Shown here: one piece after another, positions 30,287 to 31,587 of the stretch
How positions within the stretch are numbered: position 1 is the first letter of the stretch
Layout of the letters: each line of letters begins with the position of its first letter
Source: Escherichia coli
Lineage (GTDB): Bacteria > Pseudomonadota > Gammaproteobacteria > Enterobacterales > Enterobacteriaceae
Reading direction: 5' to 3' (one strand)
Assembly (NCBI RefSeq): GCF_001677475.2
Contig: NZ_CP012497.1
Length of the DNA stretch: 64,000 bases
Program-made: the position numbers and the translations under genes
The notes under the pieces: generated by a model
Told to the model about the DNA's origin: nothing
Databases searched by the model: none
What the model saw: only the letters and a program-made list of their open reading frames with translations

Positions 30287-30439
30287 ATTTTATCACCGTA
30301 TCTTGGGGCTGGGTGTTGATGACGATGTGCTACTTGAAGTACTTGGGTTTTTTAACGCAGCATCTGAAATGTGTAGACTGACCGGTAACAAATGACAACT
30401 CGTAGAATCGGGTAACACACCAGATTCTACGAGGTTTCA

Positions 30440-30772
30440 ATGACACCACGACAATTACTCGAAGACGTCAAATCCCGCTTCACACCTTTGATTGCGGATG
30501 AACCTGCTTTGCTGGAATCCCTGCTAAGAAAAGCATTGGGAACCTACCAGGATAGGGCGGGGCACATCAAGCGGATACGCTTCACTGATCAGACCTGTAA
30601 ATCACTTGCTTGTCCAGCTGATTTTCTTGCGCTCGTATCGGTTACAGATCACACCGGCGATCTTGTCTACTCAGATGTTTACGATGGGAATATCGAGCTT
30701 GAAGATACTCATCGAGCGGTATATAAAGCGCGCAAAATTATTCAAGATAGATATGGAATTCTTTCAAGATAA
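30440..30772 (+). CDS. hypothetical protein near the Mu-like right end
   Basis: 110-aa + strand ORF followed by a terminator; unclear whether it belongs to the P1-like or the Mu-like element. Confidence 0.35.
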
Positions 30773-30807
30773 GTTAGAAGCGCGCATATGGAAGTTATTC
30801 AAGATAA

Positions 30808-30837
30808 AACAGCGGCATTGGCCGCTGCTTTTTTATT
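30808..30837. terminator. bidirectional intrinsic terminator
   Basis: CAGCGGC-ATTG-GCCGCTG hairpin with A-run upstream and T-run downstream, between the + ORF end 30772 and the mom stop 30850. Confidence 0.6.
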
Positions 30838-30849
30838 CATTACGTGGGA

Positions 30850-31587
30850 TCACTTCGGGTATGGCTGAATCCTGAATAGCTTAGTATTTAGTCGCTTTTT
30901 TGCGCGCTTGTTCAGGAATCTGATGTAGCGATACTGATTAAATTTGTGTACCACCGCCCGCTCCTTATTAGCCCGCAAATACTCGCCTCGTTGTCCTCCA
31001 CGCTTAATCGCGTTCATCGTTATCTCGTGATACCACTCGCCGTCCAGCTCGTAGAACGTGCTTTCATGGCTACCAATAAAATCAAAATTAGATGCCTGAT
31101 ACACAACACCTGCACGTCCGCAGCGTTCGTCTGCAAAGGACTGAACCCACTCCACTGATGGATACAGTAACCTGATGGTTTTCAGTGCGTAGCTGATAGC
31201 CCGTGATTCAGAGTTGCGGGGCATGTCGTCGTGTAACCACATGCGGTTCAGTTCCATATAGCCCCGGTTATCCGTTTCCAGCACGACCCGACGCCCTGAG
31301 TTGGGATTAAGGGCGTATCCCCACTGGAGAACGCCAACCAGATCACGTCCGCTGAATACCCCCAGATGCAACCAGGAGTTATTCACAAAACGGCGGGAAT
31401 AGTGCTTTGTCTGAATGATTGTGCGGGCCAGCCAGCAGGATATGGTTTCAACGCGCAGTTCCCTTGAACCATAGCCGACAATACGGCCTTCATACTCAAT
31501 AACGCAGGGTTTTGTAAGGATGCGTGATTTCTTCTCTTTTCCCACAATACAGCTCCGTGGGATGCTCCCGGGCACTCGACATGACAA
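30850..31587 (-). CDS. mom: Mom-like DNA modification protein
   Basis: ORF directly downstream of and overlapping a Com homologue, the Mu com-mom arrangement; true start probably downstream of 31587. Confidence 0.7.

Follow-up and report, generated by a model that had tools for sequence, protein, structure and literature searches.

A 64-kb stretch of Escherichia coli DNA (the window) holds a P1-like (IncY) phage-plasmid into which a Mu-like prophage of the Sp18/vB_YpM_5 lineage, about 35.3 kb long, has very probably transposed at codon 95 of pmgC, the first gene after the late promoter LPsit. The preliminary description had recognized a Mu-like transposable prophage within a P1-like phage-plasmid, and this is borne out by a junction that coincides with the terminus of the element, by a target-site duplication in a sister assembly and by the recurrence of the junction in nine other contigs. 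The junction is now placed to the nucleotide, and the disrupted gene can be named as pmgC, which opens the late operon of the tail tube and sit genes; the composite is genuine and has been sequenced from several isolates.

P1-like DNA continues into the middle of pmgC

The features on which the position of the junction depends are the following.

1..30723, no strand: P1-like (IncY) phage-plasmid backbone (plasmid identity, Pfam matches of neighbouring genes)
30326..30342, plus strand: motif TGTGCTACTTGAAGTAC, called Mu-left-end-like, in P1-like intergenic DNA
30390..30408, plus strand: P1 late promoter LPsit, −22 box and −10 (homology to the P1 annotation)
30393..30413 and 30419..30439, plus strand: arms of a hairpin in the LPsit/pmgC leader (repeat search, within P1 homology)
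30440..30723, plus strand: 5′ part of P1 pmgC, 94 of 188 codons, cut by the insertion (alignment with the intact site)
30720..30723, no strand: right-hand copy of the target-site duplication, TATA (intact site and sister left junction)
30724..30806, minus strand: right end of the element (attR equivalent) with terminus TAAAGCGCGC (shared by six insertions)
30741-30749, 30763-30771 and 30798-30806, minus strand: TTCAAGATA repeats, putative transposase-binding sites R1-R3 (repeat statistics, conserved geometry)
30806..30831, minus strand: GC-rich hairpin between A and T runs, immediately beyond the mom stop codon, a likely terminator (repeat search)

The window includes just 30.7 kb of P1-like backbone, in which dam, ban/dnaB, parAB, repL, kilA/ant and icd are followed by a low-GC accessory island and then by the 5′ part of pmgC. 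These genes stand in P1 order and include plasmid maintenance functions (RepL, KilA/Ant, Icd, ParAB, Ban, Dam, LPsit-pmgC), and P1-like plasmids align with about 90% of positions 1-25000 at 97-98% identity. P1, P7 and the P1-like IncY phage-plasmids thus resemble the window in their backbone (1-30723), in the LPsit-pmgC-tub-sit operon and in their plasmid maintenance genes, but here a foreign prophage of 35 kb divides pmgC. The match to P1 itself begins at 30387, where the P1 annotation places LPsit, then pmgC (567 nt), then the tail tube gene tub; CP099272.1 has the same genes, with a pmgC of equal length, followed by the SLT-domain gene sit. The LPsit annotated in AF234172 occupies the stretch 32-50 nt before the start of pmgC.

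In a megablast search against plasmids, positions 29000-30723 match the Mu-free P1-like IncY plasmid CP099272.1 at 100% identity and hundreds of further plasmids at 97-99%, and all of these matches end at 30723. When complete E. coli genomes were searched, P1-like plasmids matched positions 30400-30723 (query 1-324) and five chromosomal prophages matched from query position 323-325 on (30722-30724). These five insertions (beside nrfB, in fliH, in a yhfX-type gene, in a vgr gene and in molR) were aligned with the window and the intact plasmid. The sequence that they share begins at the T of TAAAGCGCGCAAAATTATTCAAGATA, position 30724; all six insertions start with TAAAGCGCGC although their flanks are unrelated, and the base preceding the terminal T varies (A, A, G, T, A or C). 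Across the insertion site the intact plasmid reads GAGCGGTATA/CCCGCTGAATG, the latter opening with CCCGCTG.

Since identity to P1-like plasmids persists unbroken up to 30723 and the sequence shared by the insertions (TAAAGCGCGC...) begins at 30724, the switch from plasmid to prophage falls between these two bases, about 440 bp to the right of the ~30.3 kb first proposed. P1 homology therefore breaks off in mid-pmgC, exactly at the first terminal nucleotide of the element, and the suspicion that the insertion had disrupted a P1 gene proves correct. The plus-strand ORF reported at 30440-30772 exists and encodes 110 aa, but it is mostly pmgC: its first 94 codons belong to that gene, and the open frame then continues for 16 further codons inside the transposon end.

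A reciprocal junction with a 4-bp duplication in a sister assembly

A search with the C-terminal remnant of PmgC (81 aa) identified contig ABVVWG020000044.1 (GCA_043014985.2), which contains a sister copy of the element with kil, B, an intact 698-aa A, ner and c. Over window positions 60800-64000 the two copies align along 3202 nt with 0 mismatches and 1 gap. The left junction of the sister copy reads ...TATCTTGAATAATTTACTTGGTCATA/TATA/CCCGCTGAATG (bases ...GGTCATA/TATA/CCCGCTG at the boundaries) and is followed by the 3′ part of pmgC, tub and sit. This left junction, taken from another assembly than the window's own molecule, and the right junction of the window together imply a TATA duplication, an element of ~35.3 kb (35.26 kb) and true transposition. 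The far (left) junction of the window's own replicon would accordingly be predicted to read ...GGTCATA/TATACCCGCTG.

The identical right junction, recognized by the fusion ORF (30440-30769), was found in nine further contigs of public NCBI and Logan assemblies, with GCA_018683295.1, GCA_031299685.2 and several sequencing runs among the carriers. A 102-aa left-junction ORF predicted with a STEC388-type left end had no match when looked up, because the real left end differs from it at a few bases.

Paired flanks of related insertions show 4-bp duplications as well: CCTG in fliH (with the empty site checked in K-12), GAAT in yhfX, TGAA in VL40, TGCC in mhpA and TAAA in Sakai Sp18; for LC727881, the depositors' annotation gives a 4-bp "duplication due to insertion" (GATG). 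The duplication is thus 4 bp in every pair examined, that is at the pmgC site and at six other insertions of the clade; for yhfX, the K-12 empty site is too diverged for the duplicated bases to be read directly, and the lengths alone agree. More than 15 different flanks are on record for insertions of the clade, in keeping with near-random insertion and a short duplication. The 5-bp direct repeat anticipated at both ends is not what flanks the element, as the TATA copies are preceded by different bases (ATATA on the left, GTATA on the right). As a candidate for the lineage, a 5-bp duplication also fails at yhfX (CGAAT vs AGAAT), VL40 (GTGAA vs ATGAA) and Sp18, and is ambiguous only where the target base is A (fliH, mhpA). 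Literature searches found no paper that states a 4-bp duplication in Sp18-like phages, the sole statement being the GenBank annotation of LC727881. In Sakai, Sp18 has a TG left end and a TA right end, and its annotated boundaries overlap the sorM halves by 10-17 nt.

Architecture of the element ends

The three direct repeats noticed between 30741 and 30805 were rightly singled out: they are copies of TTCAAGATA starting at 30741, 30763 and 30798, and the motif is strongly enriched, with 4 copies in the 64-kb window against 0.28 expected and a count of 4 reached in 0 of 100 shuffles. At the right end the copies start 18, 40 and 75 nt from the terminus, at the same positions across lineages, and at the left end, as seen in the sister copy and in relatives, three inverted copies start 18, 89 and 140-141 nt from the tip. 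Multiple repeats at both ends, inverted between the ends, are what a Mu-like phage would be expected to have, and their role in binding is putative. Just inside the right end, the hairpin at 30806-30831 is likely a terminator downstream of mom.

The left ends of relatives finish with ...TATCTTGAATAAATTACCTAGTCATA; their last A is invariant in 13 flanks (...CATA), and the next base is variable. Together with the T at which the right end starts, this invariant A defines the termini as 5′-TA...TA-3′, and with such termini TTCAAGATA begins at nt 18 from either tip. Such termini, TA where TG/CA would be canonical, set the lineage apart from the textbook mechanism of Mu in some details.

The DDE transposase would assemble on the three repeats at each end, the MuB-like ATPase would deliver the target, and strand transfer with a 4-bp stagger would leave the TATA duplication.

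An inverted Mu-like genome

As proposed at the outset, the Mu-like genome is inverted relative to the window: its genes are all on the minus strand, with mom at 30850-31587 and the transposase gene running off the window end at 64000. A tblastn search with all Mu proteins gave a colinear minus-strand map, whose main elements are listed here with amino-acid identities to Mu.

30850..31587, minus strand: mom, DNA modification, 95% identity to Mu Mom
31496..31681, minus strand: com, translational activator of mom, 69% identity to Mu Com
31956..57060, minus strand: tail fibre, baseplate, tail, head, packaging and lysis genes in Mu order, 25-50% identity
57146..61635, minus strand: middle and semi-essential early region, 63-92% identity
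57146-57595, minus strand: mor, 63% identity
59605-60129, minus strand: gam, 92% identity
61408-61635, minus strand: kil, 85% identity
61648..62601, minus strand: MuB-like AAA+ transposition ATPase, 41% identity to Mu B and 98% to the STEC388 orthologue
62677..64000, minus strand: C-terminal ~440 codons of the transposase (~residues 256-695) in two frames, running off the window end

The early region (57146-61635) also holds gemA, gp11, gp9, gp8 and gp6, and the identities of gp9, gp11 and GemA to their Mu counterparts are 85%, 83% and 81%, respectively. Gene order is that of Mu (c, ner, A, B, kil...gam...mor, lysis, head, tail, com-mom), with c and ner known from the sister contig and from relatives, and the minus-strand ORFs other than the transposase tile without gaps. 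The description of Gam and B as near-identical to Mu is roughly fair for Gam (92%) and does not hold for B (41%), and Com (69%) and Mor (63%) are indeed more diverged. Orthologues of the MuB-like ATPase, which is encoded next to the transposase, match the Pfam families Phage-MuB_C and AAA_22. Mu A itself has no tblastn match in the window at E<1e-3.

Neither gin nor an invertible G segment is present in the element. Directly beside com-mom, positions 31956-34684 contain a gene for a 763-aa tail fibre and a DUF4376 gene, with no invertase; part of the tail fibre gene is 85% identical in DNA to an Actinobacillus phage tail fibre. The closest chromosomal relative is in E. coli RM9088, where the right end is 100% identical to that of the window and the prophage is interrupted by ISEc12, IS66-family and ISCro1 elements, one of them inside mom.

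Transposase lineage and covariation with the end repeats

Full-length transposases of close relatives are 97-98% identical to the part encoded in the window and 25% identical to MuA. In a full-length orthologue, Pfam recognizes Mu-transpos_C (5e-18), HTH_Tnp_Mu_1 (5e-9) and, weakly, rve, so that the enzyme has the make-up of a DDE transposase with Mu-type N-terminal DNA-binding and Mu C-terminal domains. The nearest transposases in phage records are those of Yersinia vB_YpM_5/vB_YpM_6 (85%), followed by Mu-like phages inserted in Stx prophages (75%), which PMC10132054 terms Sp18-like, SuMu (44%) and D3112-like Pseudomonas phages (32%). Judged by sequence, the element belongs to the Sp18/Yersinia vB_YpM_5 lineage and not to phage Mu. 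In comparison with the sister copy and all relatives, a G4/C4 run at ~63585 is one base (a G) short, which shifts the transposase frame; this may reflect an error of sequencing or a mutation that has recently inactivated the gene and, if the frameshift is real, the window's copy may not transpose by itself.

Eight transposases of the clade were compared, four from elements with TTCAAGATA ends and four from elements with TTTGATAC ends (E300082, S6, vB_YpM_5, Sp18). Residues 51-200 are 90-100% identical among the four TTCAAGATA-type enzymes and only 38-64% identical between the two types, whereas residues 200-650 remain 86-100% identical; the first 50 residues vary with repressor type. From the MuA alignment and what is known of MuA domains, we take residues 51-200 to correspond approximately to the end-binding Iβ/Iγ domains. 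The enrichment of the TTCAAGATA repeats, their fixed positions and this covariation point to putative transposase-binding sites.

More tentatively, and with the balance of probability somewhat against it, the Sp18/vB_YpM_5 clade could represent a distinct mechanistic variant of the Mu type, characterized by TA termini and a 4-bp stagger, in which joint swaps of residues ~51-200 and the end repeats (TTCAAGATA/TTTGATAC) would create orthogonal specificities, such that co-resident prophages would not be cross-mobilised; one such element would then be parked on a stably partitioned P1-like plasmid lineage circulating in several isolates. To transposition biochemists, the swap of end-binding domain and end repeat offers a natural specificity pair and, together with the 4-bp duplication and the TA termini, it is useful for annotating the boundaries of Mu-like prophages.

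The lineage is widespread and mobile in E. coli, with one repressor allele occurring in 582 assembly-collection blocks beside many different flanks, and STEC388 carries several copies of this prophage. The STEC388 chromosome has evidently undergone a large rearrangement through recombination of two copies of the prophage, an inversion being the simplest form: ~0.9 Mb separates the halves of fliH, and each half adjoins one Mu-like prophage end.

Comparison with related phages

Sp18 of E. coli O157:H7 Sakai and the Sp18-like phages of CC119 STEC (Mu_JNE082796, LC727881) belong to the same transposase clade (75% aa identity for LC727881) and are alike in gene order, in right-end repeats at 18/40/75 nt and in the 4-bp duplication. 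They differ in that their repeat is TTTGATAC rather than TTCAAGATA and that residues 51-200 of their transposases are only 38-58% identical to those of the TTCAAGATA type; moreover, Sp18 has a TG left terminus where the present element has TA, and a DNA invertase and extra genes near mom that the window element lacks. Six putative end sites in Sp18 had already been described, according to a citation in PMC2628397. The structural genes of the window element have no megablast-level DNA identity with deposited phages, LC727881 included.

The isolated Mu-like Yersinia phages vB_YpM_5 and vB_YpM_6 share an identical right terminus, TAAAGCGCGCAAAAT, a left end that starts with TATGA, and 89% DNA identity in com-mom; outside com-mom there is no near-identity in DNA, and they differ by TTTGATAC-type end repeats and a hin invertase.

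Mu, D108 and SfMu resemble the element in overall genome organisation, and Mu also in having three sites per end, clustered on the right with a 22-bp step from R1 to R2 and, on the left, one terminal and two distal. In contrast, the end-site sequence of Mu is unrelated, and the right end here has no similarity to Mu R1-R3; the termini of Mu are TG...CA instead of TA...TA, its textbook duplication is 5 bp instead of 4 bp, and its gin and G segment are lacking in the window element. DNA matches to Mu, D108 and SfMu are limited to com-mom (89% over ~850 bp), so that similarity is not genome-wide. Outside com-mom, no deposited phage matches the rest of the element as a whole at the DNA level.

Alternative explanations

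The preliminary description had drawn attention to two features upstream of the junction, the Mu-left-end-like motif at 30326-30342 and a hairpin with an 11-bp perfect stem. If the motif were the end of the element, the DNA from 30.3 to 30.7 kb, including the ORF at 30440-30772, would be Mu-like. Both features exist: TGTGCTACTTGAAGTAC has an 11-nt stretch, ACTTGAAGTAC, in common with Mu L1, and the hairpin has a perfect 11-bp core (CTCGTAGAATC/GATTCTACGAG). However, the motif lies within plasmid DNA whose counterpart in P1-like plasmids devoid of any Mu-like element is 100% identical from 29000 to 30723, P1 matches from 30387 with LPsit and pmgC annotated there, and the hairpin is ordinary P1 DNA of the LPsit/pmgC leader rather than an element end; motif and hairpin alike are present in hundreds of Mu-free plasmids. 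The transposase, only 25% identical to MuA, is paired with different end repeats, and a search of the junction for the Mu R1-R3 or L1 consensus found neither. As the element uses none of Mu's end sites, the match to L1 is a coincidence, and the chance that the prophage ends at the motif is negligible.

An assembly error that joined P1-like and Mu-like parts of different replicons could be entertained on the grounds that PLSDB and the complete RefSeq genomes of E. coli contain no record that crosses the junction, and that some genomes hold several prophage copies, which could confuse assemblers. Such an error would hardly place the join exactly at the terminal nucleotide of the element and in the middle of a P1 gene, nor would it yield the identical right junction in nine independent contigs (NCBI, Logan) and, in the sister assembly, a reciprocal junction at which the same P1 site is duplicated over 4 bp; the possibility that two separate replicons had been joined artificially, raised with the original observation, is accordingly very remote. 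Equally improbable is entry by homologous or illegitimate recombination with a chromosomal copy: recombination does occur between copies of this prophage, as the divided fliH of STEC388 illustrates, but both junctions lie at the exact termini, they flank a 4-bp duplication of a single P1 site, and no chromosomal DNA has been carried along. Rather more weight, though still well short of an even chance, can be given to the idea that the prophage is no longer an active transposable phage and decays, immobile, as a remnant trapped in the plasmid. The one-base deletion that splits the transposase gene into two frames would fit this, as would related copies such as that of RM9088, which are full of IS elements. 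Against it, the remaining minus-strand ORFs form an uninterrupted series, the sister copy at the same site differs by one base over 3.2 kb and encodes an uninterrupted transposase of 698 aa, and indels in homopolymers are frequent among sequencing errors. Transposition of the prophage into pmgC therefore stays the preferred reading.

Consequences for the phage-plasmid

With 35 kb of DNA in the opposite orientation now lying between LPsit and the tub and sit genes, LPsit-driven expression of tail genes should be blocked, and the insertion is probably polar on tub/sit. The ~97-kb backbone plus 35 kb would exceed a P1 headful; at ~130 kb, the composite is hence probably inherited only as a plasmid, and the P1-like element would now persist mainly in this form. 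Co-mobilisation of the prophage in P1 virions is doubtful unless a helper supplies tails and, even then, one P1 head would be expected to fit just part of the composite genome. Nested mobile elements can in this way make a plain plasmid of a phage-plasmid, and provide a transposable phage with a stably partitioned home.

No plasmid with this prophage was found in PLSDB, and literature searches returned no paper on a P1-like::Mu-like composite. The kind of event is already known, as Mu-like phages insert nearly anywhere, other prophages included, and 6 of 10 copies of Sp18-like Mu-like phages reside in other mobile genetic elements such as prophages (PMC10132054); current understanding is not overturned.

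Low-GC regions of the backbone

Upstream of pmgC, the island at 28000-30300 has a GC content of 34% and occupies the place of simABC in P1; the sim region is likewise replaced in many P1-like plasmids, and the island is common to hundreds of them. Its three ORFs encode proteins of 116 aa, 158 aa (YfjT-like) and 355 aa (with an SH3 domain). A second low-GC stretch of the P1-like backbone, at 23000-25000 (37-39%), may be another accessory island.
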